Assembly: GCA_964187785.1 (NCBI GenBank)
Contig: OZ076415.1
Span: forward strand, 18,538,001-18,602,000
Direction of reading: 5' to 3'
Source of the DNA: Amphiscolops sp. MND2022
Lineage: Eukaryota
DNA length: 64,000 bases
Positions 36,153-63,247 of the stretch are shown one piece after another. Position 1 is the stretch's first letter; each line of letters opens with the position of its first letter. The notes beneath the pieces are model-generated. The model was not told the DNA's origin. It ran no database searches and saw nothing but the letters and a program-made list of their open reading frames with translations. The translations under genes and the position numbers were made by a program.

Positions 36153-37117
36153 ATGCATTGGAAAAGGCAATGTAGTTGTTTTTGGAGGAGAGATTGTGAA
36201 GATAAAACGTCCACCTAACAAATTATCCTAAGAAACGAAAAAATACTATTTGATGTGTTACATCCATGATTCATGATAAAGAGGGTCAAGCCGGATCATC
36301 ATACGTTAAACCAAAATTATGTTACGGGGTACCTTATTGAAAAGTAAACGATGAGTTGCTGGACATGGGCAGTTATCGAACCCTTTTTTCTGCCTCTTTC
36401 TGCAAATTGAAATAAATTGAATAATTGATGGAACATTTTCCTCCCCCCCACACACACACACACACTTTTCAAGATGATGTTTTTGCAATTAATTATATCT
36501 CAATTGCGTTTCCAATGAAACAATTCAGTTTTAAACTTATTCTCAGGGTGATAGGTTAGGATTCAGATACAAACTTTGTTCACACTTCTTCCCTTATGTA
36601 GTTATGAATTTTTGATGAAGAAATCAACAGCTTCCTGTTTTGAGTAATCAATAAACACTCAATACGAACATAATTAGTCAAATTGCGTGAACAATGTTTT
36701 GATCAAGCGGAAAACTACTCTAATAGTGTGGAGACAACAAAACAATGAAAAACACTTATTCGAAGAAATATTGAATGATATAGTCAAATATAATCCTTTA
36801 TGTTGAGTTTGTTTTCTTTAAAAAGTGAGGGGAGGGGATGGGGAAGGAAGAAGAGCCCAATTGATAGCCCCTAAAATGAGCTCAAATCACCCCCCTCTTA
36901 CGTAAAAACTGTAACCTCGCTTCAAAAAAAATACATTAAAAATATTATCTATGACTTCCAAGAGTTCGACACAATCAGACACTAACTATTTTTAAATCCT
37001 TTTTCCCAAAACTCCACAGATGTGGGTGCAAAAGAAAAACTGACTTTTGTCTCCCGAGCCCCATAAGACTCTTTTTCTACCATTTCATACCACCCCCAAA
37101 CAAAAATAAACATGAGG

Positions 37118-38699
37118 TGTAAGGACTAACGTCCGTGTGGTCTCTCAAATCACAAGCAGATCTTGAATCCTTCTTTGTTAGTCTTGTATTTGTGTTCTCC
37201 CATGCGCTTCTGATTCCTTCCTCATTTGTGGACGTACACGGCCCAACGCTATGTTGACCCAAAGGCAAATTTTCTACCATATTCTGTATTTCTGGAATAA
37301 TTCTCTCACTTATAGCAGAACTAATGGCCCTGCTAATCTGCGATTGCATTAGGTCCATCATAGCCTCCATCTCGCGTGACATCCTAGCATTCATTTCCCC
37401 AGATAGTGTGTTGATAGACTCTATCAGTCTACTTTCCCTAACAGGTTCATTTCTACTGTCAATGTCTCTAATCTCATTTTCTTGAGATGAATTTTCTCTG
37501 TTCGGAAAAGACTGAAAGTCTCGTTGTCCCTCTGAGACGTTAATTAAACTGTCAAGTTCTCTTTCTATAGAGTTAGAGTTTCTCCCACCTAGCATCACGT
37601 CCATGTTGCCGTAATCAGACAACATATCTAATTCTCTTGATTTCCTAGACTTGGCCTTTTGTCTCCTTGAAGAAGGCATTGAAAATATTGTTCCAGGAGA
37701 AAATAAGTAAATTATTCCTGTGGACAATCAAGAAATTGGGCTTACAGTGTATCTTTAACGATTAGTATAAGAGCAACTGATCTAGTACCGAGTTATTTTA
37801 ACAATCCCCGCTCAGAGGCCAACATGGGTTTATATACCCAAGTGGGCATGACACTCAACAAAATGGCTGTCACGTTACTAAAAATAACTTACAAGTTATA
37901 AATAGATCGCGTCACTACTTTTTAAAGCATCATTACAACACTGGGTATGTTTGGGGCGACATGATCAAAGTGCCTTGTAAGGCCGTGGCGGGACATGCCG
38001 TTTGAACGGCTGAAATTATTTACATGAGTCTCATGTTTGAATCAACACTACATGTATACATAATCTATGTGGACCTGCATGGCCGATCGTCATGAGGGGC
38101 ATTCTAAATTCATGAAGGATAAATGATGAAACTGCATTTACTAAGAAAGCGCTGTATATCCATCATCTAATTACATTTTCATGTACAATTTCAAATAACA
38201 CTCAATGTGTCGATAGGCCGTGAAAGGCCTTACTTAAAATAATAGCATCTAGCAATTGGAACACTTAACTCGTAAGCCGAGTCCGTCCTTATTTTGCTTG
38301 TACAGTTATCAACAAAGCATAGCATGAAACAAAGCAGGCCGGTCTAATCACGTGGCCGGACTGGTCCTTTCTTGATTAAATATATAGTTAGCAACAATGA
38401 GCGGTTGAGTGAAATTAGCATGGCTGTGATTGGTCAATTTGCCGTACGCGGCCATATTAGCTATACTGAACAGGCAGCCATTTGAACACGTTTCCTTTCT
38501 GCCTGTCAGTATAACTTGCTGTCAAATAATATCACAATAAACTAAAATAACTTTCCATGTATTGAATGGACTAATATTGAGTTTTAATCAACAAATAAAG
38601 TTTGTGAAATAGTTTATATTGGAATTGTTCCGGGTAGGGCAATCGGTATACTGTGGTCGATCGTATAGAGGTTGCCATCGCAGGCGGCCGCCTGCGACA
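37118..38699 (-). repeat. 3' LTR of Gypsy-B (contains an uninterrupted Gag-N frame from ATG 37679)
   Basis: Direct repeat of 51207-52834 with scattered substitutions and an indel of roughly 40 bp; ORF 37077-37727 runs out into flanking DNA. Confidence 0.95.
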
Positions 38700-39439
38700 C
38701 TCCCCCTGGAAAGAGTAAAAAAGTGCCGACTTGCATCCCTCTATGAAAGCTCTTCTTCGCGCCTCGACTTAAAGGGCAGTCTCTCCCGGGATAGTTGTTT
38801 TGTCCAGATAATCAGAGATTGCTTCCTGCTGTAGCGTAGATTTTCCGCAGACCACACAGTCAGAGTAGTTCACCAATGGTCCGAATCCACTAAGCTCCAT
38901 ACCTTGGAAGTGGTTCGTGATCGTATCCAAGGTCTGTTGCGGGCCTGAACCAACTGATTGACTTGAATGAAGACTGGAGGCCGGCCCCCTCTCTTCGGGT
39001 GGGGGCGACATTGGTGTATCCACCAGTGGAGTTGATTTACTGCATAATTTTATCGGGTGGTTATTACGCACTCGGTCATCACGTCATATTGGTCCATTTC
39101 CTCTTCCCAATGAGAAGAAGGACTGGACAAAAACAGGCGGGGGCTGTGCTTTTGGTCGAACGTTTTATTCCTTGCGAGATTGTCTCGCATATTAACACAG
39201 TCTAACCTCGAACTTGATGGACCAGGGACGGGAATGGGCGCTGATAACTCCATCTCAACACATTGCGCCATCATCATGATCTCGTCATCGTATTCTTCGT
39301 CATCTGAGGTTAATTGTAAGTCCATCACGGACGTAACGCTGAGGTTGTCCAATTCTTCCTCCTCGTCACTGGACAGGTAGATCAATTCTATCCTTCGAGG
39401 AGCGGCGCCACAAAAGTCTTGAGGAAACCGTTCAGCCAT
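38614..39439 (-). pseudogene. Sense accessory ORF of Gypsy-B (acidic, SIM-like motifs, CxxC), reading into the 3' LTR
   Basis: ORFs 39050-39439 and 38769-39071 join by a frameshift. Past a TAA at 38769-38771 and a second indel the frame continues EARRRAFIEG-MQVGTFLLFPGGVSQAAACDGNLY...PI* to 38614. Confidence 0.65.
38700..38709 (-). promoter_or_regulatory. Polypurine tract of Gypsy-B
   Basis: Minus strand CCAGGGGGAG immediately before the LTR TGTCGC. Confidence 0.75.
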
Positions 39440-40632
39440 ATATTTTGCTTTAAACAGTTTTTTTTTCGCAATTTTGAAAGAATCAGAAAATGAAAACTGA
39501 AAGTTTTAGTCTTCACAAGGTGACTGTTTTTGAAAACTTCAGAAGGAAGAATGGCAATTTCTTCTTTCTAAGGTGGCTTGAAGTTCTTTCAGGTCTCGTG
39601 GGTCTTTCCCGGGTTTTCGTCTTTCCCGGCGATTGTTTCACCGATAACGTCTCCTAAACTTCTTTTGATGATTCCAATAAGCCGCTTTGTTTACATCATC
39701 ACTTCAGTCGTTTGCCCGACGCGGCGAAGAGCCATAAATGACATCGCTGAGTGTTTATCTCCACTTGATATCCACTTGAGAATTTCAAGAGAGGGTGATG
39801 AAGTTTTAAGGCCAAGCGCGGCGCATCGCCGCGACAGACAATGGGAATCGCCCACTCAGTCCGCTTTTCAGAATGGCGGAATTAAAAATAATAACCCAAA
39901 TAAGGAAATAATAAAATAACTAAAAATAATGAAATAACCAAGATAATAAAATAATGAAAATGCATGTTTTGAAATATAACTAATGTGGATTTCTCTGGCA
40001 GATTCCATCCACAAAATAATTCTCATAATTGTAAAAATATTTGACATCAAATCCAGTTTGCCACGAACTCCAACTTTGCTACTGCAATTGCAATCATTCT
40101 CTATTTCAATTGTTATTTTATCAATTCAAAATTTAACCATCGTTTACTTGGTCTTTAGTAAGTCTTTTAGTCGTCATCATTTTAAATCAGTTCATCAGCG
40201 AACAATTTATTTTCCTTCCGTCACTATTTACGCTTCTGTCCCGACGCCACTATCGTCACTTTCTTTCTTTCTTGGAATCTTTCCCAATTCATCTTCCACG
40301 TTTTCACTCCTGCGATTCATCTGGCCTCATCGGTCCTTCATTGCTGTTCCGAGCATACTGGTGCAACACGTACTCTTGCATTTGTGAGCAACTGCCTCCA
40401 GTCCTTATACGTCCATCATCCGCAGGTAAGCTATTTGGTCTTTTCAATTTTTGAACGGAAATAAGCTTGATCAGGTCTCTTCCTCTCGTTCATTGACTTC
40501 CTGTCCATTTTCACTAAACAAGTTTAGCATTTGGAATATTTTCTTTTCACTTCCGGAAGGTTTTAATTGCGGTTGTTCTTGGACTCATATTCAGGAAGTT
40601 GTCCGCAAAACTTTATATCCTTCTGTTTAGAT

Positions 40633-43600
40633 ATGTCTTCTGAGAAGGAAATGCCAAAATCCACTGTTCCCAGTGGTGATGGGAACGGATCTACTGAAGT
40701 AGAGCAGCAAGGTAACGCAGCACAAGTTGACCCTGTCCGGCCTTTGTCCCAAACGTCCTTTTCTAGTCCGTCTACAGAGGAGAGCGTCTCTGCCTTTATT
40801 GAAAGAATCGCCACATGTATGGAATTCCCAACACGTGAATCTGAGATCAGTGACATACCGATACCTATGCCTGCCACAGTTACGTCGACAATCTTCCCTG
40901 AACTTTTGAAAGTTTCTGTCTCTGACCCAATCGTCGTGAGTCAGGACGTGAGCGAGGAGAAAACTGGCCCTGCCATCGAGCCCGAGTTGACTTCGCAATC
41001 TGGAGCTGCTCCCCTTTATGGAGACACTAGCGATGCTGAAGAACTTTTAGATAGTTCTGGCGTAGATGCATTTCCTCCCATTACGTCCTCCTTGGCGTGG
41101 GATCCTTCTGCTTTCCCCGAGTTCGAGGGAGAATTCCGAGCCGAGTCTGGCCACATTGACACAGAGCAGGAGCAGTATCGCGCTAGGGTTGCCAATTCCG
41201 ATAGGCAACTATCAGTTAAAGGAAGATCGGTCATTAAGAAGTATTTCACAGCGGCCACTCCCGTCCAATTGCCAGCCGGTCATACGACCATTGCCTTCAA
41301 TGAGGATCAGGTCCACGCCATCCTTCGCACTGTTGCCGATGAGTCTGTGATATCTTCTTATCACATGATGAAATCTCTCTTGCTACATGCCACTAGTGGG
41401 ACTTCACAAGACAAGAAGAGAAGCCCTACACCAGCTCGTCGGCCTTCTAGCAGTTCAGGTGATGAAGGCAGCTTCGGAGGAAATACCAGTGACGGCTATA
41501 CGAGCTGGGGCGTTCAATACTGACGAGGACCCGTATCAGGGGGGGTCCATATCTAGGACAGATGGGGTAAGTGAGACTGGATCTAGAACAAAACTTCCTG
41601 AAACGCCTCTTAGGTTCAATCCCAGCACGTCTCGCGCTGAGGTCACGACTCCCACTTCCGGAAGTGGGTACAGCAGCACTGACCACCAGCCACTATCCGT
41701 CCTCAGACGGTCACGAGAACCTGATGTGGCTACTCCCAGTCCTCCATGAAAAAGAAGGAAAATGCTTAGTAAGCCAGGGAAAGTCATGAAGGACGCTTAC
41801 TTTAAGGGCATCCAGTGGACTCGGACTTTCGTGTCCGGACCTCTTGATCCTGTCCACAACAAGTTCAAATTTTATTGTATGCTGTGCAAAACGAAAGTGT
41901 CAATATATTCCAAGGGTGCCAGGGAGATCTTATGGCACTACAGAACAGATGGCCATCTGAGGAAGGACCAAAAGTGGAGGTTTGTGCACTTGCAGGAAAC
42001 CGACGAATTCACCGGAAATGTGACTCACCAGGTCAGAGGCAAAGACGGCTGGGTGCTTACTCCCGTCGAATTAGAGAAAGAGAAACCATTATTCATGGAT
42101 GTCCCTCTGATCGAAGCAGGAGATCGGTTTCCGTTTTTCGAAGATTATATGGCCAGTATAGGGGGTATCACTAACCCTGATGACTTGAGGACTAGCACTC
42201 TAATTTCCCTGATCGGCACCTTCATTCCCAAGGACGGAAATTTCTCACTACTCCAAAGTCTCTGGACTAAAGTCGGACAATTCACCAACCATCAGACCCT
42301 GTTTTCTTCTTTCGACTGGGGGTCCGCCACACTTACCGTAAGTATTTCTTTTCCTAGAATCCTGGTGGTGATTCGTTGTGAAATTACTACGATTGAGCCC
42401 ATATTCTCCTTTTCAGAACATTTTCCACCACATCTTCATGCGCGGACTTTCCGACATCTCAGGACATGTTGTCTCCAGTGGCTTGTATTCGCTTGAATTT
42501 ACTACCCAGGGCGTTTACCGTTGCCTATCGATCCGGTTTTGGAAGAATGACTTACTGGCAAGAGTTGAATTTTATCGCCACCACCAAGGGGAGGCTTATC
42601 CAGATTGTTATTTGTCTGCCATCTCGCACGTATTGTCTTCCACTTCCTCCAAACCCAGCTTGGTCAGTGTTTCCGGCTGTTCCTCCATGGTATTTCGCGC
42701 CCTTGAGACCAGCGGTCTTTTCAAGAATGGGATTCAATATCCATTCCGATTTGAAGCCATCTCCCTACCGGAACTCATGCACCCAAATGTGCTTCAAACT
42801 AAGCATGTCTTCGGCCGAATCGACATGTTCACACAACTCAAGTATCTGGTTGTCTTTCTGCGCGGGTGCCAGAGCCAGCCATGGGGCCTACAGTGTCCGG
42901 AGCTTTGCAAGGTTTTCATCTATTTTTGATCCACTGTTTTGGTTTATATTTCCTCGTCAGCAGTTTTGTAGTTGAGTTTTCCTTTTGTGGTAAACGTAAC
43001 TCAGATCTTTCCATGTTATTTCGTCCCCACTTTGTAGGCTTCGGCTGCATGCGACATTCAGTTGAAGAAAACCCCAGCTCTGTGTACTGAACTCATCAAA
43101 CACTGGAAGGACGTCCTTGACTTCATGACGAAGACGGCCCCAACACAAGTCTTGCAAGGTGTCAAGAACAAGGTTTGTATATTTTTAATCTTTCATTCCG
43201 CTTCGGTGTTAGGATGGTCCCAATTTCCCAGTGTTGTCTTAGGCCAGTATAACTTGCATCTTACTCCTTTGAAAGTATAATCTCCCTTTTCAGCCACAGA
43301 GTCTAGAATGGGTGATAATCCAAGACGACTTCTTCACTGTCAAGCTTGAGTTCTTCTCCTGTTTGGTCCGCGATTGTTAGTTCCTTTCCTATATTTGTCT
43401 AGTTCTAATTTTCATCTTTTTCCAATTGCCGCGCTCGGCCCCTAGGACATATTTAGCACGCTTTTACTATGGAGCTTCTTTTTCACGCTTTTGAGTCTGT
43501 ATTCTATTTAGATACGAAGTGCTTTGAACGCAGCCTGGCAGGACGACGAGATGCAACTTTGTTCGTCTACGGACAGTACTGCCGCTTTATTCGTCGCTTG

Positions 43601-44671
43601 CGTCACAGGGCGATTCTTTCTAAGTGTACTCCTGATGATGCCGAATGGACTAAGCTCCTACAATTGTGCCCCGATGACTTGAAACAGTTATCCAGCCGTA
43701 ATTTTCTGAGCCGGTTGAAATTGGAGACCGACTTGGACCAAGCTTGTCGAGCCAAAATAAAACGACATCAAGATGATAAGAAGCCGGGCCAACCAAGTCT
43801 TGATGCCCTCGTTGCCAAAGAGAGGGAGAATTTTGGAATTGAGGCCCGAGGTTACATTGTGTCCTTACTGGAGGCTCTGTTGCGCAACGTGCATTTCACC
43901 GCCAACATTGTGCACGGGATGGGTTGTTTCGACCCTCACGTACTGCTCTCTTTGCCGCTCAGCCAGGTTACTTTCTGTTTCGATTCCTTGTACGATAGTT
44001 TCCGAGTTCGAGGCTGGGTAGACGAAGCTTCTAAGAGCGAGTGCCGAGATGAATATTTCGAGTTTGTGGACTACCTACGCAGTGCTTACTCGTCTATAAA
44101 GAACTCCCCTGGCACTATTCCAGATATGCTGGACTTCCTCGTGCCCATGCCCGCTTTTCAGAGTCGTTCGAGGCTCTTTCATTTTTTCAGGCTCTGTTGT
44201 CTCTGCATCACTGAGGGCCATCATGACCTTCCAGCTGTCAAATTCCAGGATGTAGATACATCTAGTTCGAATTGTCGTCTTTCCGCTGTGATTCTACCTG
44301 CACAGTCTTATCTGGCCAACTGCCCTGATGCGATAGCCGTTTGCACTACTGAGTCCGCTTTGGCTGCATACAAAGAATTGTCTGACCAGTTTAATTCATG
44401 CCAGTTTGCCGGAGATCCTTGATCTCATGTGGATGTTTTTGGTCGAGCCAATTTCCTAAAAACTTTAACTACGGCTTACAAAAATCTGAAAGGAGTTCCA
44501 ACTGCTGTGGTTGCCACTACGTCTCGTTCGTCCTCTGTTTCCAGCTCTGCTGTGCGCAAGATTAATTGGGCTGCTGGTAAGGCCCAGGAATTGGCTTTTT
44601 TCGGCGACATCCCACCTAGCGAGATTTTCAAGACGGTGAAGGAGCTGCGTCAAGGCTCATCTAAAGACTAA
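40633..44671 (+). pseudogene. Spliced antisense accessory gene of Gypsy-B (~1190 aa when repaired)
   Basis: Exons 40633-42337, 42417-42911, 43038-43172, 43294-43375, 43512-44671. Introns 42338-42416, 42912-43037, 43173-43293, 43376-43511. Lesions: frameshift near 41505, TGA 41747-41749, TGA 44420-44422 (TGG/Trp in copy A). Confidence 0.8.
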
Positions 44672-44846
44672 ATGTACAGAGGGTACATTTGTTATTTTAG
44701 ACTTTCAATTTGTATCTTTGTTTCGTAGTTTTCTGTTTGTATATTTATGCAGTTAGTCTGTTTTAAAGTAAGTCAGAAAGGTCCCAGTGAAAAAACGTGC
44801 CATCTCAGGCAATAAAATAAATAGGGACACAATTTAACATTTCTGA

Positions 44847-47800
44847 CTAGTATCTGTATTCATCAGTAAAGTTGGGGTTGGGGTTAGGTCGAAGGTTGGA
44901 TTTCCCCCCTCTAGGGCTAGAGTTTTCATCAGTTTTTTCATTTGTTTTTCCATTCGATATTCCGGGCACGGTAATATCATCCCCCTCATTAAGAGAGTTT
45001 TTCTCGCCTTCTAATTCATTTGTGACGTCATTCACGTTCTTTTCTGAACTAGGTGGTGTATTTCGGCTAGTGGCCGTTCTCGGCCTTCCTGTTTCGCTGC
45101 TTTGTTCATCTCGCGCAGCATTCTCGTTAACGTCATGTTCGTCATGCACTATAGGTGCGTCTCGGCTAGCGGCCGTACACGGTCCCGCTTCATTTTCATT
45201 CATTTTGGTTCGTTCATTCAATTCGGTGACGTCATTTGCGTCTCGTGTGATTGTGCCTTCTCGGCTGGTGGCCGTCCCCGGCCTTACCGCGTTGTCATCA
45301 GCGTTGTCATCAATGACGTAATCACTAGTCGTGACACCAGCATCGCTGTCTGGTGTTTGCGATTCTTCGTCCGTATTATCGTCTCGTCTCGGCTCGAAGA
45401 CATGGTAGTCAAAGTCTGCTTCCCATGAGATGGTGTATAAATCATCTTGCGGTATGATTATTTCATCATCTGGTTGCAATTCCTCTTTGGCATATTTGTC
45501 CTCTAAAGGCGTGTTTGGAACAAATTTTTTCAGGCGGATTCGGTGTAATATCTGCGTTTTATTCGTATTTAAGCGGCGGACAATGTAATTGTCGTTAGGT
45601 AATACCCTTTCAATTCGATAAGGACCGATCCAGCGGTATTCTCTAAATGGTTATTTTGATCCTTGATTATCCCCTTTAGGCTGTAGGATAAAACAAAAAT
45701 CTTGTTCTCTGAGAGGAGCTGCTTTGGCTTTTCGGTCATGGTACTCCTTATATTTCAAGTAGGACTGCATAATGTTATGCTTCGTTTTGTCAATGAGAAC
45801 TTTCGTTCTCTGTTGTAATTCTTCAGCAAATTCCGTCGTCGGGAGGAAATCCTTATTAGGATTATTTCCAAGTTTATGATCAAAAACATTGTAGGGAATT
45901 CTTCCGTGAAAGACCTTGCTCGGTTCACAACCGATGCTGGATTGATAAGTTGTGTTATAATTGAGCACTGCTAGTGGCAAATATTTGTGCCATTGACGGC
46001 GATATTCCCCTGAGGCCATTTTCAAATTTGTCTTCAATGAGGCGTGAGTTCTCTCGAGTTTGCCAATTGTTTGTGAATGTTTAGTCGTCGCACATTTTAG
46101 GGTTCTTCCCAATACTTGCGTTATTTCTGCAATAATTTTTGATGTAAAAGCGGTTCCTTTGTCGGTGATGATCGTAGTTGGCAACTATGAATGCTTCGTC
46201 ATGATGTCTATTAAGACCTTTGCCGTATTAGAGGCTGTTGCCTCAACAAGCGGGTAGGCAAACAGATATCTTGAAAAGACATCTATTGCCGTCATCACTG
46301 TTTGGTAACCCCCGCTTGTTGGCAAGTTTGGGAGTAAATCGATTTGCATTGCGTCCTCTGGTCCAAGGTCCCATTCTGGTAAGTTAAGCAATTTAGGCGT
46401 TATCGTGTTGTTTGGAGCCCGTTTATCTTTTGCGCAAGTTACACATCCTTCTACCCATTTTTTAACATGTTTTGCTATACCGGGGTAGTAGTATTTCTGT
46501 CGGATTTCTTGTTACATTTTCGATATGCCAGGGTGTTTGTGCGCCGTTCCATGTAAGGCCTGTAACAATTCTTTCAAAAGGTGTTTTGGTAAGAAAACCT
46601 GGTGATACTTGACTTGTCCGGTTTCATCATAATATTGTCGTGACTATTTCGTCTTTAAGGACTATTCGGTCCAAGTTGTTAAGGTAGTGTTTGTATCGGA
46701 TATCTTGCTGAAGTAGTTCTTCAGAATAGTCTTCGTTCTGAATTTTGGCTTTGAGTTGGCGCAGTATAGGGTCTTTGGATTGTTCAAGTAAGATTTGATT
46801 CGTTCTGCGCATTTTTTGGGTAAAGTTTGTAATTTCATCTACTAAATTTTCAGATATTGCGTCAATGTGAATTACGCCTTCTTGGTCGATTGGGTTGGTT
46901 CGGCTTTGTTTTTTACGCTCCCAAATTTGAGATTCTGTCTCATCATCTTGGTCCGTGAAGAAAACCTGTTCTTCCTCTGCAACGCCTGCCGATTGGACAT
47001 TGACCTCGATGGGCTTAGTCTCTATGTCTTCGCGGATTTTAAGGACTAGTTTCTCTTTAGGGTCTGTTTCCATGCGAGATAAGTAATCGGCTGCTGTGTT
47101 GTTTTTTCCTGGTATATGTGCTATGACAAAGTTGAATTGTATTACATAGTCACATGCATTCCAGAGTGTTGGAGGGATTATCTTCGTCTGGAAGAATCTC
47201 GTGACCGATTTGTTGTCCGTTAGGATAGTAATCGGTTTGGGGGCTCCCCAGAAAATAAGTCCAAATTCTTTGAATGCGTAATAAATCGCTAAGAATTCCT
47301 TGGCGTATATGGACATTTTGAGTTGCGATGGCGTAAAAGTTTTTGAGCCATATGCAATTGGAGCGTATGATTTTTTGATAGATGATAATTTCTGGTTTGG
47401 GTCGTCCTCGGTAAGTATGGCGTAGCCGGCCGCTGTGAAACTAGCGCCTGTCATCAGGACCAGTTGCTTGTTGGGCAAAGGTTGCTTCAGGGCCAATTGG
47501 CTACATTTGTCGAGGTCCCGTTTGATTTCATTGAACTGTTGTATTAGTTCTGCAGTCACCAGGACTTTTTCGTCTTTTTTGAGAAGTTGGAAGAAGGGGG
47601 CTAATTTTTCAGATAGTCTTGGGATATAGTTCCTGTAATAATCGAGGAAACCAAGATATCTTTGCAAAGCCTTTTTAGACTTGGGGAATTTGGTTCTTTC
47701 TAGGAAGTTTGTTATTCGCTCCTTTTGTGGTTTGACACCTTCCGGGGTAATTGTTCTTCCCAAGAAATCGATTTCCGTTGCCCCAAAGTGACATTTGTGC

Positions 47801-50064
47801 ATTGTTAGTTTAAGGCCCGCATGTCTGATACACTCAAAGGTGGCTTTCAATTTTTTGATGAGATGATCCAAGTCGTTGGCGGCTATGCCGATGTCGTCCA
47901 CATATTGGGCACCTTGATCAGCTTTGATAACTTTATCCAGGTATTCCCTCATGAAACTTGAAAAAGCTGAAAATGCTCTGCTAAGGCCCTGAGCAAGTCG
48001 TCTATACGCAAAGGTGCGGCTTGCAAAATTGAACGCAAGCATCTCAACGGACCTTTGGTCCGCCATTGGTAGGCAGTGGTATGCCTGTGAACAGTCAAGT
48101 TTACAGAACAATTTCTTTCCTGCCATATGTTGTGCAGCGTCCGTTAGGGTGCTAACCGGATGATTGTTGTTTATATAGTCATCCGAAATGAGGTTATTAA
48201 TTTTTCTCAGGTCGACTAGTAGTCTTAGCTTCCCATTCGGCTTTTTCTGTGCGAATATGGGACTGGCGTATTTCGAAAAGGGCAGAGTAGTTATTATGCC
48301 ATATTTGTGTAAGAGGGCCAGTTTGACTAGTATGTCCTCTTTTAAATTGACTGGAGTTGGAAGACTTTGGCTGTAAGCGGGCGAATCGTCCTTAGGGGTC
48401 AGTTTGACCGTGAATTCTTCATTCATTCCGATGTCAAATCTGTGTCGTGCGAATATGTCATGGTATTCGACTAAAAGCGATTCGATCTTTTTGATTTCGT
48501 GTTGTTGCAGCATGGAGTCTTTCCAGTCGAAATTGCTAAGGAATTTGCGGCGTGACTCATCATCATTTTGAGGGTTCAATTGTTCAGCTTCTTGGAGGTT
48601 GCGTAATTCTTGAAGAATTCGTCGTTGGATGGGAGTATGGGAATCTTCGTCCCCAGGGTTTTTTGGCGTTGCAAACCAGTACTGTTTATATTGGTCATTG
48701 TTCCGATTAGTTTTAAGTAGGCTACTGACATAGTAGATCGCGTCCTCTTCATTTTCATTGAGGAGATGCCATGTGGACACCGGGTCAATGGGTTTGACGT
48801 GTTTCATCTGTTCCGGTGTTAGTACAGAAAAGTTTGCTATGTGTAGTCCCTTTTTTAAGCTTGTACGGTTGGTCTGTGAAATTGTTGATATGAACGTTGA
48901 CATTTCCACTAGTCAATGTGACTATCGCGGCACAGAATGTGATTGTCACCTTCTTCATGGAGGATATCACTGGGCTGCAGCACTCCTGTGACCGTATTTT
49001 CATTGTAGATTTGGGATTTGATCTCTACTAAGATACGGTCATTGGGTGGTATTGTGATATCGTCTGGGTTAAGTATTGGTTCCAGTACGTTGGAATATTT
49101 ATGGTCAGCCGTTTTGAGTTGCATCGAGAAATATGGGAAACTGAGTATGCCTTGTCGCATGTCCAGTACTGTATGATTCCTCTGGAGGAACATCAGTCCT
49201 AAGATAGGGCCAGTCAGTTTTTCCATTATTATAAATATTTCATGGAATTCGATATCTCCGACTTCGAACTTGAGTTCAACAGTGCTCTTTGGGGTTTCCA
49301 ATTGTCCGTTTGCGACCATAATGAAACGTCGGGGCAGGTCCCTCTTTGACTATGGATTGGGGCGCCCAGAGGCGTATTTTTTTGAGGTCTGCTTCCGGTA
49401 TTGCGCTGGAGTGAGCTCCAGTGTCTATGAGGCCGTCTATGGTTAGTTCCCCAAAGTCCATCGGGAAATATAGCATCCGTTTTTTGTATTTGAGTCCGAG
49501 GTTTGTGGATAAGGGTATATATGCTGGTTCTCCCTCTTTAGTTACAAGGACATGTATGAAGGCTGTCTCGTCGAGGAGGCCAGGAGTGGCCTGTGTCTCT
49601 TCTGCATGTGGCTGATCTTTGATTGCATCAAAATTTGGTTGCCACGGTTCGATAAGTGCCCGAGACAGTATACTGTCCACAATGTCGGGGTCGTCCTCAT
49701 CGTCCGTTGGCGGGTAGTCATCATTCCGAAATTGTAAATTGTGTTTATCGTATATATCATCATCCCAGTACGGGTCTTTGCCGTACTCAGGGTCATAGTA
49801 TTGGAGGTTGTAGTCTTCGACAATTTGTAAGGGTCGGAATTGGGTTTCTGAGTCTTTAGTGAGGTTGTTACGTCGATATAAATATGGGTGGTCACTGTGG
49901 ATAATGTATTGAGTTTGAGTACAGGCTTCCACCATCTGCTGCTGCCAGACAGTCGATGGGGTCCCTGTGATGTCCTTTTGTGATTGCTTGTAGGCGATAT
50001 TAGCTGGGTCTGATATGACATATTGTCGTATCGACTTTTGATCAGAGATTTGGAGTCGTGGCAA
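44847..50064 (-). pseudogene. pol: Gypsy-B pol, disrupted
   Basis: LIDTGA, YVDD, RNase H and integrase motifs colinear with Gypsy-A pol; several frameshifts and a stop at 46185-46187. Confidence 0.95.
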
Positions 50065-50066
50065 AA

Positions 50067-51768
50067 TTAGTTTTTTGATTCAGGCTTTTTGGAGTTCGAT
50101 TGGCCTGATGAGAACGTTGTGGATTTTTCATTCTTGGTGCGAGTGCCTTCGTCTTCAGAGGGCTCCGTATCTTTGCAAGAGTATTGTCTGTTTCTTTTTG
50201 GACGAAGATGGGCACCAGCGCCACGCCAACATTTCTCTGCTGGATGATTGGTTTTGCTGCAGGTGGGGCATTCTGGATAAGTTTGTCGTTGAGGCTTCTT
50301 GCCGTCTTTGGCCTCTGATTCTTTCTTTTTTTTCAGTTTTGGACAATTTTTCCAGAAGTGGTCCTCTGCCTTGCAGAATGAGCGTTGGTTATTTTTGTTT
50401 GTGTCAATGCCAGTGGATAGTAAATTTCGGGATTTGCTGGACGACGAAGTCATTGTAGCAATGGGTAGGTCGTCAGATTCTTCTAATGCGTTTAATTCGA
50501 GTTCTCTTTCCAGATGTGCCACAATCTCCTCGTAGGTCCCGTTTTCCAGTCGGGCCATATTCACTGATCTCTTGAGTTTCGGGGGGTAATTTGGCGTATA
50601 ACAGGCTATCTATCATGCTCTTGGCGTTTTCCCCAAAGGCTTTCTCGGCACCCTGGTTGAGTTCTTCGAGAAAATCGGGTAATTTCATCGTGTTGGGATC
50701 AAAGATGAGCCTATGCCACTTATGTTTAGCTGTGGCTTGAGACTCGGGTTTGACGTACTTTCTGCGGAATATGACCAATACGTCCTCTAATGTTTGACGG
50801 TTTATGGAGTTTATATTTCGGAAAGTTTGCAGTGCTCCTTTTCTGAGCAGGGAATGAAAATGGTTTATTTTCTTTTGTTCAGGCATAGCGGGATGCATCT
50901 TTATCATTGTATGAAGTAAATCTTCAAACAATTCGAATTTCTCTGTTTTGCCGTCAAATGTCATGGGGTTCGTCGTGACTGGTCTAATTGTCATCGAGTG
51001 TGGTTTATTTTGGAGGTTTACCAGGTTATCTGATCGGTTAATAGGGTCTTGTGGCTGTTCTGCCGGAGCAGGCTCCGCTATTGGCATAGTTGTATCCAGA
51101 GTTGTGTCATGTGCAGATTCTTGCCTTTGGAGGTCTGGCTGGGAGTGAATTCGTCCAGTGAGGAATTCTGGAATTGGATGTTGGGCTTCGCTAGCTCCTG
51201 TCACCATGTAAGGACTAACGTCCGTGTGGTCTCTCAAATCACAAGCGGACCTTGAATCCTTCTTTGTTAATCTTGTATTTGTGTTCTCCCATGCGCTTCT
51301 GATTCCTTCCTCATTTGTGGACGTACACGGCCCAACGCTATGTTGACCCAAAGGCAAATTTTATACCATATTCTGTAATTCTGGAATAAGTCTCTCACTG
51401 ATAGCAGAACTAATGGCCCTGCTAATCTGCGATTGCATTAGGTCCATCATAGCCTCCATCTCGCGTGACATCCTAGCATTCATTTCCCCAGATAGTGTGT
51501 TGATAGACTCTATCAGTCTACTTTCCCTAACAGGTTCATTTCTACTATCAATGTCTCTAATCTCATTTTCTTGAGATGAATTTTCTCTGTTCGGAAAGGA
51601 CTGAAAGTCTCGTTGTCCCTCTGGGACGTTAATTAAACTGTCAAGTTCTCTTTCTATAGAGTTAGAGTTTTTCCCACCTAGCATCACGTCCATGTTGCCC
51701 TAATCAGACAACATATCTAATTATCTCGATTTCCTAGACTTGGCCTTTTGTCTCCTTGTAGAAGGCAT
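50067..51768 (-). pseudogene. gag: Gypsy-B gag, disrupted; starts inside the 5' LTR
   Basis: MPSTRRQKAK at 51768; nonsense codons near 51700 and at 51361-51363; frameshift near 50560; knuckle CPTCSKTNHPAEKC. Confidence 0.92.
51194..51206 (-). promoter_or_regulatory. Primer binding site TGGTGACAGGAGC (Gypsy-B)
   Basis: Directly after the LTR end TTACA; identical to the Gypsy-A PBS. Confidence 0.88.
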
Positions 51769-52834
51769 TGAAAAAACTGTTCCAGGAGAAAATAAGTAAA
51801 TTGTCCCTGTGGACAATCAAAAAATTGGGCTTACAGTGTATCTTGTACGATTAGTATAAGAGCAACTGATCTAGTACCGAGTTATTTTAACAATCCCCGC
51901 TCAGAGGCCAATATGGGTTTATATACCCAAGTGGGCATGACACTCAACAAAATGGCGGTCAAGTTACTAAAAATAACTTACAAGTTATAAATAGATCGCG
52001 TCACTACTATTTATAGCATCATTACAACACTGGGTATGTTTGGGGCGGCATGATCAAAGTGCCTTGTAAGGCCGTGGCGGGACATGCCGTTTGAACGGCT
52101 GAAAATATTCACATGAGTCTCATGTTTGAATCAACACTACATGTATACATAATCTATGTGGACCTGCATGGCCGATCGCCATGAGGGGCATTCTAAATTC
52201 ATGAAGGATAAATGATGAAACTGCATTTACTAAGAAAGCGCTATATATCCCTCATCTAATTACGGTTATATGTATGTAGCAACATTTCATGTTCAACAGA
52301 TCAACATTTTCATGTACAATTTCAAATAACACTCAATGTGTCGATAGGCCGTGAAAGGCCTTACTTAAAATAATAGCATCTAGCAATTGGACCACTTAAC
52401 TCGTAAGCCGAGTCCGTCCTTATTTTGCTTGTACAGTTATCAACAAACAAAGCATAGCATCAAACAAAGCAGGCAGGTCTAATCACGTGGCCGGACTGGT
52501 CCTTTCTTGAGTAAATATATAGTTAGCAACTATGAGCGAATGAGTGAAATTAGCATGGCTGTGATTGGTCAATTTGCCGTACGCGGCCATATTAGCTATA
52601 CTGAACAGGCAGCCATTTGAACACGTTTTCTTTCTGCCTGTCAGTATAACTTGCTGTCAAATATTATCACAATAAACTAAAATAACTTTGCATGTATTGA
52701 ATGGACTAATATTGAGTTTTAATCAACAAATAAAGTTCGTGAAATAGTTTCTATTGGAATTGTTCCGGGTAGGGCAATCGGTATACTGTGGTCGATCGTA
52801 TAGAGGTTGCCATCGCAGGCGGCCGCCTGCGACA
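51207..52834 (-). repeat. 5' LTR of Gypsy-B (1628 bp)
   Basis: TGTCGC...CTTACA; repeat of 37118-38699; flanked by the TSD. Confidence 0.95.
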
Positions 52835-54404
52835 TGAGGGGTTATATTTAACAATATCATTAAATATTTCCCAAAACTTTTGCATTATATTTTAATGAAG
52901 TTGCATAAATACACACAATCAACTACGGATTTATGCTAATTATTTTTACATAATTTTTCGAGTGTGGGGGATAAGTTCCCCTCTGTGACCCCTTGTTCCC
53001 CCGTGTGAATTTCTGTGGAGTCATTCAAATCCATAAAAAGATATTAGCAATCAGTTTCAAGGTTATTCATTAGGTGAAACAAAAAGATTTTAAAACATGG
53101 GTGAGGGTCAGAAAAAAGAGACCAGAATATTTGTTCATTACGAACAGTCAAAACACAAATGATCTTTTGAAAGGAACATCAGTTTAACAATCCTACAAAA
53201 CTTTCGAAGTGAATTTCAATGCCAATTCTCGATTTTCAAAATATTTTCAAATCCCGAAATCAATAAAATGATGTAAATTCTGAGTCATTCATGAAGATAT
53301 ATATACGAATAATTAAAATCATTACTTTTTAAAACATACACGCATCATTGAACAACCAAGCATATTATGATTTGAGAAGACAAAGACAAAAAAAATTGTA
53401 AAAGTAAGTTATATTGTTTTACAACCGCATTCAAGACAGAAGTCAATAGCTCTCTTACTTATTCCCCCCACACATTATAATAACTAATTTTTACCAGCAG
53501 ATCTGAACTAACTGTGCTGGCACTCAGCTGCCAACAACCAATGATCACCACTGGAGGCAATGTTGGATCATCTGTCACTATTTCCACTGGTGGCCACCGG
53601 TGGATTTTTATTTCGAAATAAGTTAGACAATGAATTTTGGAAAATTGTTTAAAATGTAACTTTTGTCTATCATTATTTTATTGTTAAGTCTGGAGGCAAT
53701 CTGCTGCTTTGACTAACTCCAGTTTTCGAAGAGACCCCAGCCCCGTTGTTAAACATCAAAACGTAGACCAAGTTTCTCATTCATTGATCGATGTACTCTT
53801 CCAAATGTTTTTTTTCGGCTCTTTTCGTAGTTCTTCGTATGAACAAAACATTACTCACGCATTTGGATTGTGATTAAGTTCGAATTAACTTTTTGTGACT
53901 AAAAAAGAAAGTTGTTAATTTCTTGATCAAGAATGCGTGACTTCATAAAAAAAACAGTTCTGAGCAATTCTCAGCGAGTAATTCATGAATACCACTGATA
54001 ATAACCAAACGTAAGTAAATGTAATATAGATTTCATTTAAAAACTTCAGAAGATTGGTGGAGTTTCTTTCACATGTTCACAGGCTCACAGGTTGATACTA
54101 ATCTGCACAACGTTGATACTGTGCCCATCAGCTCTTCAGTTGTGTACAATTCCATACAAAAAAACCACGTCGTATTTGAATTCTTCCCGATTTTAGCTTG
54201 TTTCAAGCGTGAATTTTGGACAATAGTATCGAAACATTAGGGTCATTTTTGCTGGAAGTGTCAAAACAGCTGTAAAGAAAGACAAATTTCTAAGAATTTA
54301 CATTCTCTAAGTATTTACATTCCCCTGTTGGGGGGATTCGAAAGAAGGTGTATCTGGAGAGGAAATAAGACACATAGTCAAATATTTTTGCTGCCAAACT
54401 CTTG

Positions 54405-54806
54405 TTTTTAGTCAGCGCCTTTTCCTTTAAGGAAAAAACCCGACTATTACATTGGGTAGTTGTTTTCAGTTCACTCTGAATGGTCCACTTTTTTTCTTCA
54501 TTTGCTCAACTTTTTAGCCGAGATGTTTCAGTTCGGATATAACGTTTCGAAGTTCGAATGTAACGTTTTCAAAGTTAAAGATCGGATGTAACGTTTTCAA
54601 AGTTCGGAAATACCGTTTTCAAAGTTCGAATGTAACGGTTTCAAAGTTAAAGTTCAGATGTAACGTTTTCAAAGTTCGGATGCAACGTTTTCAAAAGTTG
54701 AAACTAACGTTTTCATTTCTCGTATAACATTATCGATTTTCCCCAAAAATTTCACATTTTGTAGAGCCTTAGATATGGCGCCGACTTGAGCCGTTCTCGG
54801 TTTGTT
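54405..54806 (-). mobile_element. HINE/DINE-like non-autonomous element, copy 2
   Basis: Degenerate AGTC.GCGC...CGACT stem-loop at 54410-54445 and end motif GAGCCTTAGATATGGCGCCGACTTG..CGTTC..GG.TTGTT shared with copy 1. Confidence 0.5.
54528..54716 (+). repeat. Minisatellite, unit approximately GATGTAACGTTTTCAAAGTTCG (22-28 bp)
   Basis: About eight degenerate tandem units, no unique spacers. Confidence 0.85.
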
Positions 54807-55540
54807 GTTTTTATATTCGGAGAAAGCAATTCTATTTTTTGCGTACACAATTGAAAATTGAAATACAGCGAAACTTGTAAACACCATGACTGAGAAATAC
54901 CTTTTTCTGTTTCAAATGAAGCAAGTAATTTTTTCCTCATTCTGCTCGCAAGCCACACGAAAGAAGCAAACATATATCTGACATTTTTTTTATTTTCAGG
55001 AGAAATTCACGACTGTTTTTTTCGAAAATCCAAAGTGAAACCCGGGCGAGCATAAACAACAGATGAGAACAAAGACTTCGAGGCGGAGCTGAAGTTGAGA
55101 GTTAACACAATCCTTCTTGAACAAAAATGGCAAATGGACAGGACAATTTTGTTAGCAGATTTACAGCTACGAGCACAGCTACTGTCGTTAGGCCAAGCAG
55201 TCATTGAAAGGAATATAGTATGCCTATATGTCGTTTACCAAATGGTTGCAGAATATGTCAACGTTATTGAAACTGAGAGAAAAACAACAATGAACGATGA
55301 ACCAAAAATTATTCCCGCGAACAATTTTACAACTCAGAAAAATTCGTGAATGATTCATGACTCAAGCTTTCGAGATAGCAAAGAAATGATTTTTGCCAAA
55401 ATAATACTTTTAATTCAATCTTGCGACGCAACATCCTCCGGGCCCAAGAAGATGTCAATACAAAACATTAGAACTGAAAAAAAAGAACTTTTTTCGGAGA
55501 ACGGTTTACATGGATTTTCGATATAAATGTTACGCTGTGC

Positions 55541-58500
55541 TCAATGATAGGTACGATTACAAGGACAAATAAAACGAAAAAAAAAGATAATGGACCAAGT
55601 AAGATGAGGAGAATCATCATGTGGAAGAACGGGTGCGAGTTTTACAACCGGACGCACGAGAGATCCAGTTGCTGTTTTCAATTCAGCCGAGCGGCCAACA
55701 GAGCCTTTACCGTATTTCAACCTAACAACACGTGCAAGTGGGTAGTGTCCGCGTGGACTCGAAGGTTCGACAATCCAGACGAGATCTCCGGTCTTGACTT
55801 CTCGTTCTGATTGGTTCGACCACTTGGATCGGCGGTTGAATGAGGGGACGTAGTCTTGCAACCAACGGCTCCAAATAGCGTCACTGTATGCTTGTGCACG
55901 GGCATAGCGCTTTCGGTGGTCAGCGTCGGCGTGCTGATGTGATGGTAACGTGGAAGTCGCCGCGCCCAGCAGGAAGTGATTTGGGGTTAGCGCGTCCAAT
56001 TCGGTAGCGTCGGAGCTGACAGGTACAAGTGGTCGGAAATTGAGGCTCTGCTCTACTGAACAAAATATAGTAGACAAAATCTCATCAGTGAGGCGGCGGT
56101 TACCCAGTAATGCGTAGAAGACGTGCTTGAAATTTTTGACAACTCTTTCATAGACCTCTCCATGATGCGTTGCACTGGGTGGGTTAAATTTCCAGTGAAT
56201 CCGCCTTTTAACAAGTTCTTCGGACAGAGCTTGCTGATTCCAGTTGGTTAGATTCAGTAAAAATTCTTTTTCACTGGCAACGAAGTTTGTTCCGTTATCC
56301 GACCACAAGGCAGACGGTAAGTCACGGCGCGCTGCGAATCTGTCGATTCCCATTACGCAACTACTCGTGTCCATAGAAGTGACGACTTCAAAATGAAACG
56401 CCTTAGTAGTTAGACAGGTAAAAAGGAATCCCCAGCGTTTTTCAGTCGATCTTCTGACAGTAACGTGGAACGGTCCAAAGTAGTCGATGCCAGTGTTTGT
56501 GAATGGGCGCTCTTTGATTGCTAATCGTTATCGGACATTATCGGGTAGAGTATCTTTGCTCGGCGTTTCCGGCATATCACGCCTTTCAAAACAATTGATC
56601 TCAGGGCTGTCCTACGCTTGATGTCGGCTAGCTGTTGCTGCACCAACGCCCTCAAATAGCCCACGGCCGGATGACAATGTGTCTGGTGGAGGTGTCCTAA
56701 ATAAAGTCTGACGACGGGATGTCGGCTGTCTAGTAAAACAGGTTGTTTTGCATCGAAGTTGGAAGCATCGAGTTGTTAAGTTCTACCTGTCTCTCGCACC
56801 AAGCCTTTTGGTCCGACGAAACGGGTAAATTGACGTAGTTTGGATGAGGTGCTAGATGGTGCTTGATCGAGCAAACTCTTCTTCTCCATTGGGAAAGACT
56901 CCTCTTGGGCTGAATAAATGAGTTTTTGTTGAGCGTTAGTGAGTTCTATAGGGTCGGTAATTGTTCCTGTCGCGGAGCGGAATGTTTCGATTTGAGGGAG
57001 GAGGCGCAATAAGTAAGCCACTATGCGCAAAAGTTTCTCGAACGAGCACTACTTTTGTCACTCAAAAGTTGAAGCTGTCGTGGTCACAGCAGCCAATGCG
57101 GTTGTCTCAATGACTACTTGCTCCGATGTTTTAGTATCTACTTTGTTGCCTTTTAGTTTTAGCTAGAGCTCCTTTGACGGCTGGATTGAAAGTTCGGGGT
57201 TCAGCAGGAAAGCTGGACCTTTCAGCCACGGGCTGTCGCGGAGGGCACTGGCTGGTAGTCCTCTTGTACCGGCATCCGAGGGGTTGTCGCACGATTGTAC
57301 GTAATTCCATTCATCGACTGTTGTCAGATCTAAAATCTCGGCCACACGGTTGGCAATGAAGACAGTTTGTTTTTTGATAGAATGAAGCCATCGAATGGCG
57401 GTTGTTCTGTCCGTCCACATGAAAGTTATATCGATTCGGAGAGCAAGTGTGCTTTCGATATCTTTCCAGAGGCTCGAGGCAAGTAATGAAGCTTGCAACT
57501 CGAGTTTTGGAATGGTAAGGGCTTTCATTGGAGCCACTCTGGCTTTTCCGAAGACAAAGCCTTATTGAGTACGGCTTCCATGTTGGGTTGTCACTTTTGC
57601 TCGCAGAAAGGCAACTGCGCTGAAGCAGTCTTGCGAACTGTCGCCAAACACGTGCTGTTCCAACGCTGTGAATGGTCCCTCGAAGTAGCTGCGCGGGATT
57701 TCGATTTGACTCAGTTTCGCTAGATCTCTGTTCCATTCATTAAACTTGGTTACTGTTTCCCCGGGCAGGTTGTCGTCCCACTGTTGACCATGTAGTTGCC
57801 ATATATCTTTCAGCAAAAGCCGTGCCGACACTGTGTAAGGTGCGACGAGGCCTATCGGGTCATACACAGCGGACACAATGCCTAGGATGATCCTTTGTGT
57901 TAAAGTTCGATTGGTGTCCGGACTTGTCCCTCGACTAACTACGAGACTGTCTGACAAGTGGTTCCATTTCTCTACCAATTTGTTGGAAGACTCTTCGGTC
58001 TTCGGTTTGCTCTTTTCCGCGGTCAACGATGGTTTACAAGTAGGTTCAAGGTCATTAGAAATTTCAGGAACATTGGATACGCACTTTGTCAAGCTGAATC
58101 CAACTCTTTCGATTAGTTTAACCAAATTTTTTGCTTTCTTGGCTGCTTCTTTGATCGTGGGGATTGATTCTAGGTAGTCGTTCATATAGAAGCTACGATG
58201 GACAATCGCGGCTGCTTCGGGGTAGTCGGTCTGGTTGTCTGTCCATGTGCATTTTGGTGGTTTTTACGGGTGATCTACGGGGTGGTGCGACAAGTACCAC
58301 TCGCGGTTGTTATCCACTTTGAAACAGTCAGAGTTGTCGATTTGAACAATATAACCCTTTGCCAAGTCGTCTTGGATGTCTTGGATAGTTTAAGAGAAAT
58401 GTTGTTTCAGTCCCGGGTCTTTACTGAGACGGCGTTCTAATGAGTTCAACTGTACGAGAGCAGAAAAGTAGTTATTGGGCAACCTACTGTCGTCATCAGC

Positions 58501-61500: not shown

Positions 61501-61646
61501 GACATCACTAGCCGTTCGACGCGGACGCTTCGTTCAGTATTGTTCACAGCGTCTATCACATTTTTTTGGAAATTCTTGAGGGCTGTTTCGGCTTTAGCGC
61601 CATTTTCGGACAACCATTTAACTTTATCTTGGACAGGATCCGCCAT
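55541..61646 (-). pseudogene. BEL-B gag-pol, multiply frameshifted
   Basis: MADPVQDKV (cf. BEL-A MANPVQEKV), ALCDSACSHS, IPKLELQA, SDNGTNF and RGHYPLARV fragments. Confidence 0.92.
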
Positions 61647-62011
61647 TGGGTTTATCGAGTTTAAGAATCCGGGCTAGTGCACAGTTCCAATCAGAAGAAC
61701 AATATGTGACAAAAACGGGAAGGGTGATGCATTTTGTGATTTCCGAAAGAATTGAGAGGGCCCGGAGTATCGATAAAAAAACTAGTCGTAGAGAAAGAGG
61801 ATGTTTAAAGTAATGGTGCTGACCCAATTTCAGCCGGTCAATGCACTCCGGACTTTATTGAGACAGTCGTATGTATGCGAAAAAAAGCTTCCAGAGTATC
61901 AACGAGACAACTAAGTCTGGACACAACTCTGAAAGAAACAACGCGCTCTAAAGGTTTCAACCAGACAGTGAAGTCTGGACACTGCCTCCACAGCAAACAA
62001 TACTCTGGGTT

Positions 62012-62629: not shown

Positions 62630-63247
62630 GCGTGTCTTTTCTCTCAAGTTTTGAGGTTTAAGATCTGGTGAGCAACAAACCACAGTAACAAAGGCTATGA
62701 GTTTTATGTTTTTTCTCTGTGGAATCCGAGCATTCATTTGTTTTTCAGTGAACTACAGCAGAAAGTGGTACACAATCTTCAAAGTGAAGGCGTGAAACCG
62801 TTTGATTTCTACTGGGAACTTTACAAAATGAAAAGCAAACTCTTTGTTTTCACTTAATCGCTATAATTCTTTCAAAAATTTTATGCAATTTCGCTATCTC
62901 GATTGATGAAGCCAAAAAGTTACGATAGCAAAAGTTTGTTCAAATTGTTTTGGTTCTCTTCACACGATCAAGCGATCATATGCATTTTTGGGGGTCCTCA
63001 GCGCTCCACCTCTGTGTGCCGTTAGTCGAGTTTCAATCACTTTGAACCAAGTTTCCCATTCAAGTTTTCCAATGTTTGAAACTCGTTTTCCTTCCGAACT
63101 GTTGATGAACACCTTTTCCTTCTTAATCGATTTCAAGTTGACTGCTTTGAGGCAGCAGAGAAGACACGTGGTCGTCGAATTGGGTGGATAGGGTGAACGT
63201 CGAAATTGGGAATGTCAGCATTACACCAGGCCTCTCAATGGCCACCA

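Follow-up and report, generated by a model that had tools for sequence, protein, structure and literature searches.

Extra open reading frames (ORFs) that run antisense and are situated between pol and the 3' long terminal repeat (LTR) have been described in plant gypsy elements of the Tat/Retand group (Grande gene23, RIRE2 and the TRP28 ORFs of Retand) and in Boty of Botrytis (PMC11963269, PMC7264820). The product of the Grande antisense ORF is reported to be nuclear and its gene to have its own promoter; the same sources call the origin and role of the plant ORFs unknown and state that descent from transposable elements (TEs) lacks support (PMC11963269, PMC7264820). Nuclear proteins are also encoded antisense near the 3' end of human T-cell leukaemia viruses (HTLV), namely HBZ of HTLV-1 and APH-2 of HTLV-2 (PMC11963269), and animal gypsy elements are described with a dUTPase between protease (PR) and reverse transcriptase (RT) and with extra ORF3s (GDSL, DEDDy and env-like in bdelloids, Burro in planarians; PMC5408684, PMC6431247). 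Finally, VANC of the Mutator-like VANDAL transposons is a TE-encoded anti-silencing factor that evolves faster than the core enzymes (PMC6719617, PMC13547354). Here we consider an antisense gene carried by a Ty3/gypsy LTR retrotransposon family of Amphiscolops sp. MND2022, starting from one copy, copy B, in a window of 64,000 nucleotides (nt) (assembly GCA_964187785.1, contig OZ076415.1, positions 18,538,001 to 18,602,000) that forms part of a 1.07-Gb genome. Our reading, to which we give a probability of about 0.5, is that copy B represents, in decayed form, an accessory gene with introns that is kept under selection and whose product is likely a dead hAT-type transposase serving as a nuclear, DNA- or chromatin-binding helper against host repression.

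The antisense gene in copy B and across its family

The element that carries copy B spans window positions 37118-52834 (15,717 bp), has gag-pol on the minus strand, and is identified as Ty3/gypsy by its LTR ends, target duplication and pol order; a polypurine tract (38700-38707, minus strand) adjoins the 3' LTR. Its LTRs (3' LTR at 37118-38699, 5' LTR at 51207-52834, both on the minus strand) have TG..CA ends and are 94.4% identical, and a TGAGG target-site duplication stands at both ends (37113-37117 and 52835-52839). As the original prediction held, the gene lies between pol and the 3' LTR of this element. It is antisense to gag-pol, some 1.7-1.9 kb from the LTR and behind a further ORF, ORF3, and it converges on pol without overlapping it; fewer than 200 nt separate the two stops, with the predicted AATAAA between them (44811-44816, plus strand; pol stop at 44847, minus strand).

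Five coding exons are found on the plus strand: exon 2 (40633-42337), which holds an N-terminus rich in Ser, Thr, Pro, Asp and Glu, a basic motif, a C2H2 finger and a helical region; exon 3 (42417-42911), predicted to form an RNase H-like core with one invariant Glu on strand 1; exon 4 (43038-43172, 45 codons); exon 5 (43294-43375, 82 nt); and exon 6 (43512-44671), with a helical body, hAT-like C-terminal features, a low-complexity tail and the final stop at 44669-44671. By length arithmetic only, they sum to 3,577 nt or about 1,190 codons, in agreement with the repaired product of about 1190 amino acids (aa) that had been proposed. The domain description likewise bears out: Ser, Thr, Pro, Asp and Glu make up 46% of the first 290 aa, a basic motif follows, and a conserved CxxC..H..H finger, for which Pfam gives just sub-threshold C2H2 families, lies upstream of the core. 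All three lesions reported earlier are present, namely a frame change near 41505, an in-frame TGA at 41747 that sits within the basic motif, and a premature TGA at 44420 in exon 6. Gag, pol and ORF3 of this copy are also broken, and a lesion pattern common to all four fits decay after insertion.

With regard to the beginning of the gene, the original prediction placed the start at ATG 40633, after an acceptor (TTCTGTTTAG at 40621-40630, plus strand) and a candidate donor in the 5' untranslated region (UTR), GTAAGC at 40426-40431 (plus strand). These coordinates are correct, and a similar donor occurs in most aligned B-type lineages, but the conserved start lies 18 codons further upstream (40579-40581) and in frame. 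It is found in 102/102 loci where the surrounding block matched (14 of 116 loci being unmatched), whereas ATG 40633 is a B-type feature, with 78/79 B-type, 0/17 A-type and 0/6 C-type loci. The true start of the family is probably the upstream one. The block of 18 codons (40579-40632, plus strand) opens with this start, which is altered in copy B, probably as a fourth lesion, and closes with an invariant TTAG directly before ATG 40633. Several of its codons vary synonymously, which points to coding; three, that of the TTAG included, are nucleotide-invariant (the pattern used in the search set some residues and left third positions free), and the block may double as coding sequence and as a splice or promoter signal. 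CCGGAAG and CAGGAAG motifs at 40540-40600, kept across all aligned lineages and resembling ETS-type sites, may mark an internal promoter.

At the other end of the gene, a hexamer lies no more than 260 nt from the stop in 53/66 other copies. Note, however, that 27% of shuffles of the 260-nt stretch of copy B also yield a hexamer, so that, taken alone, the candidate signal is weak evidence of a poly(A) site. On the genomic strand (minus), four copies have 4-8 AATAAA sites within 38700-44846, at or above the 3.4-4.0 expected by chance, which full-length RNA must read through.

Did the gene move with the element, as originally claimed? To avoid a gene-based choice, copies were selected by RT. Of 146 RT matches, 75 were paired with a gene match; 60 of the remaining 71 were retrieved, and 57/60 had exons (54 with all three tested exons). 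The gene is thus carried by 132/135 copies, copy B included, in a sample that leaves out 11/146 RT copies, all of one young family. Two of the three copies that lack it have large deletions and one is rearranged; the converse outcome, in which most members would be without the region, did not materialise. In distant loci the gene converges on the integrase end in 20/20 checked, and no free-standing copy outside an LTR element was seen among the loci with flanks examined.

Family size is very large and activity recent. Of 7,308 first-look candidates for exon 6 in the genome, 142 proved to be matches; a search with copy A (1-2677, plus strand), the 3' part of a gene of a distant lineage (about 33-43% aa identity to copy B) within a second gypsy element of the window, gave 150 other places; and searches with two remote proteins added about 220 matches, mostly from other lineages, first-look candidates numbering some 7,000-7,300 in these searches. 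Two remote relatives of exon 6, P0171 and P0254, reach a best identity of just 29-32% among scored candidates of the host genome and derive either from another genome or from old copies left unscored. Among B-type loci, 84/90 hold all exons and 42/84 combine open exons with GT-AG at every junction, so the repaired frame is indeed open in natural copies (loci entered the sample in order of similarity, and near-identical ones are frequent among the 42). Openness also tracks youth: in 22 copies with an LTR pair, one partial-pair copy having been left out, the gene is open in 9/11 with LTRs at least 99.5% alike versus 1/11 older ones. In two pairs of loci (L073 with L074, L083 with L084) much or all of pol is lost and the antisense gene is still open.

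Ratios of nonsynonymous to synonymous divergence (dN/dS; Nei-Gojobori) between copy B and a young relative are 0.04 for the N-terminal piece, 0.03 for the finger, 0.03 for exon 3 and 0.05 for exon 6, next to 0.07 for gag and 0.04 for RT in the same pair. These values indicate that the gene is under purifying selection in the family, and we have very little doubt that it is a real, functional gene. Positive selection was rejected as a candidate explanation because it is not measurable here, synonymous sites being saturated between lineages.

Comparison across loci also speaks to the introns. Counted site by site over six junctions, 79-85 of 86-89 B-type loci have the GT or AG at an unchanged codon position; the corresponding counts are 18-20 of 19-20 for A-type loci and, for five sites, 26/26 for distant loci. 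Junction positions hold while intron lengths range from 62 to 174 nt, and they are constant across lineages just about 33% alike in protein, with saturated synonymous sites. Splice dinucleotides conserved despite varying intron length argue that the introns are real, beyond what chance would give. Furthermore, exons 4 and 5 are directly contiguous in 34 loci, from which intron 4 (43173-43293, plus strand) is exactly absent. Since these loci make up a single clade (100/100) that is nested within the B group, and since intron 4 is retained in all other sampled lineages, we infer one exact loss. The simplest route would be recombination with a complementary DNA of spliced antisense RNA; an exact genomic deletion is possible too. 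Intron structure varies elsewhere: in a young lineage of 20 copies at 99-100% identity (L256-L261, protein P0285), intron 2 is in frame and stop-free, so that readthrough gives an 844-aa open frame over exons 2-3, with a stop at that place in sister lineages, and in one distant lineage (L236, L239-L244) intron 5 is far longer (>400 nt).

How might a multi-intron gene persist in an element that passes through RNA? Introns on the strand opposite to a transcript present no splice signals. The RNA of the element is the strand opposite to the gene, so that the gene's introns would offer no splice signals there, would be copied by reverse transcription, and would in this way survive retrotransposition.

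The gene is, moreover, not tied to one backbone. When two young copies are compared in 500-nt bins, identity is 91-100% in LTRs, ORF3, gag and pol versus 55-73% across a cassette with borders at about 40,050 and 44,790 in window terms. These borders, which were projected from two natural copies (approximately 40050-44790, plus strand), enclose the 5' region and 3' UTR, so that both move along with the gene. Exon 6 is more than 20% apart in 16/40 copy pairs with RT less than 3% apart (27 copies; pairs not independent). The gene is swapped as a cassette between element backbones that elsewhere are 96-100% identical. No inverted pair is common to the cassette borders of 3/3 copies (an 8-bp duplication was not searched for), which makes template switching between co-packaged RNAs the likely route of exchange. 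With exchange this free, a close fit between the protein and the LTR, Gag or integrase of its own element is unlikely to be required. Cassette exchange was missed by the original prediction, as were ORF3, the probable upstream start and the likely DNA-transposase origin to which we now turn.

Origin and role of the product

Modelled from an alignment of 30 rows, exon 3 has a predicted local distance difference test score (pLDDT) of 64, a predicted template modelling score of 0.58 and the order helix-b1-b2-b3-helix-b4-helix, which we take, with moderate confidence, as an RNase H-like fold. In Foldseek, the top five rows for this model are the Hermes hAT transposase (E 0.010-0.024, probability 0.84-0.96), and VIA places model residues 1-109 on Hermes 149-263 (Z 5.9, root-mean-square deviation (rmsd) 3.5-3.6, 95 aligned). 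Exon 6, whose single-sequence fold is poor (pLDDT 42), was approached through ESM Atlas features: matches score 0.93, 23/30 fall in the Dimer_Tnp_hAT set, and they belong to hAT dimerisation and FAM200/GTF2IRD2 clusters. On these two weak but independent leads, along with domain order, we apply the hAT label and regard a hAT-like transposase as the probable origin of the gene. The genome also has a number of hAT transposases of ordinary type (L216-L235), whose open frames measure 600-700 aa; none of them is a close donor.

ISCth4 serves as a guide to catalysis, its catalytic residues being D175, D241 and C262/H265, with a helical insertion and a CxxH (PMC7780238). With positions placed by offset to these residues via the aligned ranges, Asp or Glu occurs at exon 3 columns 82-90 in none of 38/38 rows, CxxH is absent at columns 105-124, and no acidic column exceeds 52% after the C-terminal helix. 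Glu27 on strand 1, near the expected first catalytic acid, is invariant in 38/38 rows, and exon 6 keeps Asp140 and Asp204 at 91-92%. Judged by these columns, the product lacks both the canonical DDE triad and the C/DxxH motif and is likely catalytically dead. It could nonetheless function as a DNA binder of transposase descent.

Searches for relatives returned little that carries a name. Pfam, run on the ORFs of the window and on alignment members, assigns the gene to no family above cut-off; with profiles of three exons, searches of PDB sequences reach a best E of just 0.25-0.71; and a protein search with exon 6 confined to longer lengths confirmed 0/4,826 candidates. A profile of the finger has 302 matches, of which the 120 listed are without Pfam domains, without names and 42-96% identical, and the best 150 of 802 matches of an exon 6 profile among 1.84 billion representatives are short pieces of at most 418 aa, so that a remote transposase could lie among the weaker matches. 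DUF4371 had no match in the host's own genome, in a search whose positive control was silent too, and scans of metagenome and viral contigs confirmed 0/66 and 0/26 pattern matches. There is no membrane segment in the three large exons, where the highest 19-residue hydropathy is 1.13. An env-like gene was rejected on this ground and on antisense orientation, and chance opposite-strand ORFs were rejected given that the gene does not overlap pol.

Imagine, then, how such a product could serve the element. An internal promoter near 40,000-40,600, head-to-head with ORF3, would drive a separate antisense transcript, which would undergo splicing and terminate ahead of the pol stop. The protein would enter the nucleus via its basic motif; finger, basic motif and transposase scaffold would have been retained for binding DNA or chromatin, and the acidic, Ser/Pro-rich N-terminus would engage host factors such that the element stays expressed. 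That cassettes diverge within near-identical backbones argues for a host-facing rather than a lock-and-key role, and we put a host-facing, pro-element function at roughly even odds; a counter-silencing or activating role in particular is a guess. More tentative still is the fuller history in which a gypsy lineage of animals took up a hAT transposase gene with its introns, disabled the active site, preserved the introns through antisense orientation and now trades diverged cassettes between backbones as a host-facing counter-silencing factor.

A number of observations weigh against this reading. The case for expression, product and localisation is built from sequence, and the present evidence would fit activating and repressing effects alike. 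In VIA, the Z of Hermes is on a par with those of ISCth4, retroviral integrases, Pelota and kinases, and no Foldseek row reaches E 0.001 or better. Atlas recognition (1972) stays under its threshold, with 135-154 of 256 features common (<170), just two of the ten best exon 6 hits belong to the clan of the best hit, and exon 3 gave nothing in the Atlas. When set against 14-40 natural hAT ORFs from the genome, hidden Markov model profiles and hhalign do not rise above reversed or shuffled controls, Pfam and PDB sequence searches hold no transposase match, and the donor transposon was not found among the natural hATs of the genome. Lastly, the selection measured is strongly purifying, not positive, and divergence faster than that of pol does not show an arms race.

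Should the dead transposase instead be a cofactor of integration or nuclear import, tethering the pre-integration complex to chromatin or importing it, then finger, basic motif and transposase scaffold would suit DNA tethering, presence of the gene in nearly all copies would make sense, and import of the pre-integration complex has in fact been raised for the plant antisense ORFs (PMC7264820). However, cassettes about 30% apart in DNA sit within near-identical gag-pol, leaving no visible co-variation with integrase, and the target duplications of the family are ordinary 5-bp ones (at 15/15 other copies with both LTR ends exactly resolved) without a common sequence. We consider this model unlikely, if worth keeping in mind. 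We hold a self-limiting regulator to be somewhat less likely again. HBZ of HTLV-1 opposes sense transcription, and in a similar manner the protein, or a convergent antisense RNA, would repress gag-pol and cap copy number. The convergent layout, a dead transposase as a natural DNA-binding repressor, and the fact that ORF3 and the gene point away from a common spacer are all compatible with such control, and regulation by antisense RNA is discussed for antisense ORFs (PMC7264820). Yet the family has grown very large and was recently active (identical LTRs), selection acts on the protein, and the candidate poly(A) signal precedes the pol stop, so that little RNA overlap is expected.

The remaining alternatives concern what the protein is. 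A real accessory factor could have drawn its scaffold from another RNase H-fold source, be it a Mutator/IS256-like transposase or a host gene. ISCth4, which also has the helical insertion and CxxH (PMC7780238), is level with Hermes in VIA (Z 6.4, rmsd 3.7, 102 aligned), and hAT profiles gave no sequence signal; against this, Hermes comes first in Foldseek, the exon 6 Atlas matches are of hAT dimerisation and FAM200/GTF2IRD2 type, and domain order and size suit hAT when compared by eye with natural hAT ORFs. On balance, a non-hAT source seems improbable. That the protein is still an enzyme, its active site rebuilt for nuclease activity or for help in strand transfer, strikes us as very improbable: the invariant Glu27 and the well-kept acids of exon 6 could be read in its favour, but there is no second acid at strand 4 and no CxxH, and the element owns an integrase. 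Finally, the transposase-like fold and the broken state of copy B might suggest a nested DNA transposon or a neutral passenger hitchhiking in the element. If this were so, we would not expect dN/dS of 0.03-0.05, a gene open in young copies, cassette borders devoid of a shared inverted pair, and, at the loci whose flanks were examined, confinement to LTR elements. Selection and carriage data contradict this idea, and we give it next to no credence. An accessory gene of transposase descent with a host-facing product is what we prefer among these models.

The rest of the element and its neighbours

Pol of the carrier (44847-50079, minus strand) is broken by four frame changes and three stops. Its order of PR, dUTPase-like domain, RT, RNase H and integrase, a gypsy order with the dUTPase-like domain between PR and RT, is read from the open pol of a sister element at 2889-8081, of which copy B holds the same pieces; the nearest structures to the RT are foamy, caulimovirus and Ty3. 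Gag (50070-51774, minus strand, weak DUF1759 match) is broken as well. It begins within the 5' LTR, about 570 nt inside, and the first 190 or so gag codons are consequently present in both LTRs (51207-51774 and 37118-37727, minus strand). A sequence that starts with TGG, a candidate tRNA primer site, follows the 5' LTR.

ORF3 (38617-39439, minus strand) runs in the gag-pol sense and crosses the polypurine tract into the 3' LTR. It encodes about 278 aa with an acidic N-terminus and a CxxC, and no Pfam family matches it under E 0.1. Two frame changes and two stops break it in copy B, and young copies have it open. With dN/dS of 0.08-0.17 in four unsaturated between-subfamily pairs and up to 0.37 in close pairs, ORF3 is, on these ratios, under purifying selection. 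It is also swapped between backbones and is oriented away from the antisense gene.

The element of copy A (window 1-10716) measures 15,849 bp including a part to the left of the window, and has LTRs 99.1% alike, with both gag and pol open. In its antisense gene, exon 2 has lost an internal stretch and exon 6 is broken. The end of the element coincides with the start of a 200-nt repeat of a Bel/Pao element, and it may have inserted into a Bel/Pao LTR. Two Bel/Pao elements, 67-73% alike, lie in the window at 10717-19659 (plus strand; DUF1759 and Peptidase_A17) and 55207-64000 (minus strand). Bel/Pao elements are not known outside animals, and their presence marks the host as likely an animal. 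A short tandem array of 22-28-nt units is found at 54530-54715, just outside the copy B element.

Comparison with known systems

Why might such a family be of interest? It offers a traceable candidate origin, a DNA transposase, for an antisense extra gene, and it illustrates how a gene with several introns can be housed in a retroelement. Natural intron loss backs the gene model. The family also suggests that its spliced antisense RNA may gain access to reverse transcriptase, and the occurrence of different cassettes in the same backbone amounts to a set of natural swap experiments. As a high-copy, recently active system, the family further lends itself to the question of whether proteins of counter-defence are encoded by LTR elements of animals. 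In the literature searched, from which subscription journals and repeat databases were mostly absent, no title or abstract describes an LTR element with an antisense gene that is spliced and derived from a transposase.

The likeness to Retand and Grande is one of layout: a coding region that is antisense, placed between pol and the 3' LTR, and present in nearly all family members. The present gene differs in a host that is likely an animal and in having five coding exons, about 1,200 codons and a predicted RNase H core of transposase type, and Pfam searches found no TRP28 (PF04195) match in it; introns go unmentioned in the main text on the plant ORFs (PMC11963269, PMC7264820). HBZ and APH-2 are short and driven from the 3' LTR, unlike a gene that lies about 1.7-1.9 kb from the LTR and whose 5' region moves with the cassette. 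Animal gypsy elements resemble ours in the dUTPase between PR and RT and in extra coding capacity, whereas the descriptions consulted contain no antisense, intron-containing or transposase-derived ORF (PMC5408684, PMC6431247), and neither 'transposase' nor 'intron' occurs as a word in the text of PMC5408684 that was available. VANC, as a TE-encoded accessory protein, is the model for the role that we propose. It is, however, family-specific, MAIN-like and found in DNA transposons, we saw no homology between it and the antisense gene, and cassette exchange argues against a strict VANC-style match to the LTR.

With hAT transposases (Hermes) and dead derivatives such as FAM200 and GTF2IRD2-like proteins, the predicted product has in common a finger, an RNase H-like core and a helical body with hAT-like C-terminal features. 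It departs from them in the lack of a DDE triad, of CxxH and of any significant sequence match, in an added N-terminus of about 370 aa, and in a cassette without terminal inverted repeats at its borders; its carrier, too, is a class I element rather than the host or a DNA transposon. The window itself contributes a decayed copy and the finding belongs to the family; what is new here is the reading of its antisense product as a likely dead transposase of hAT type.

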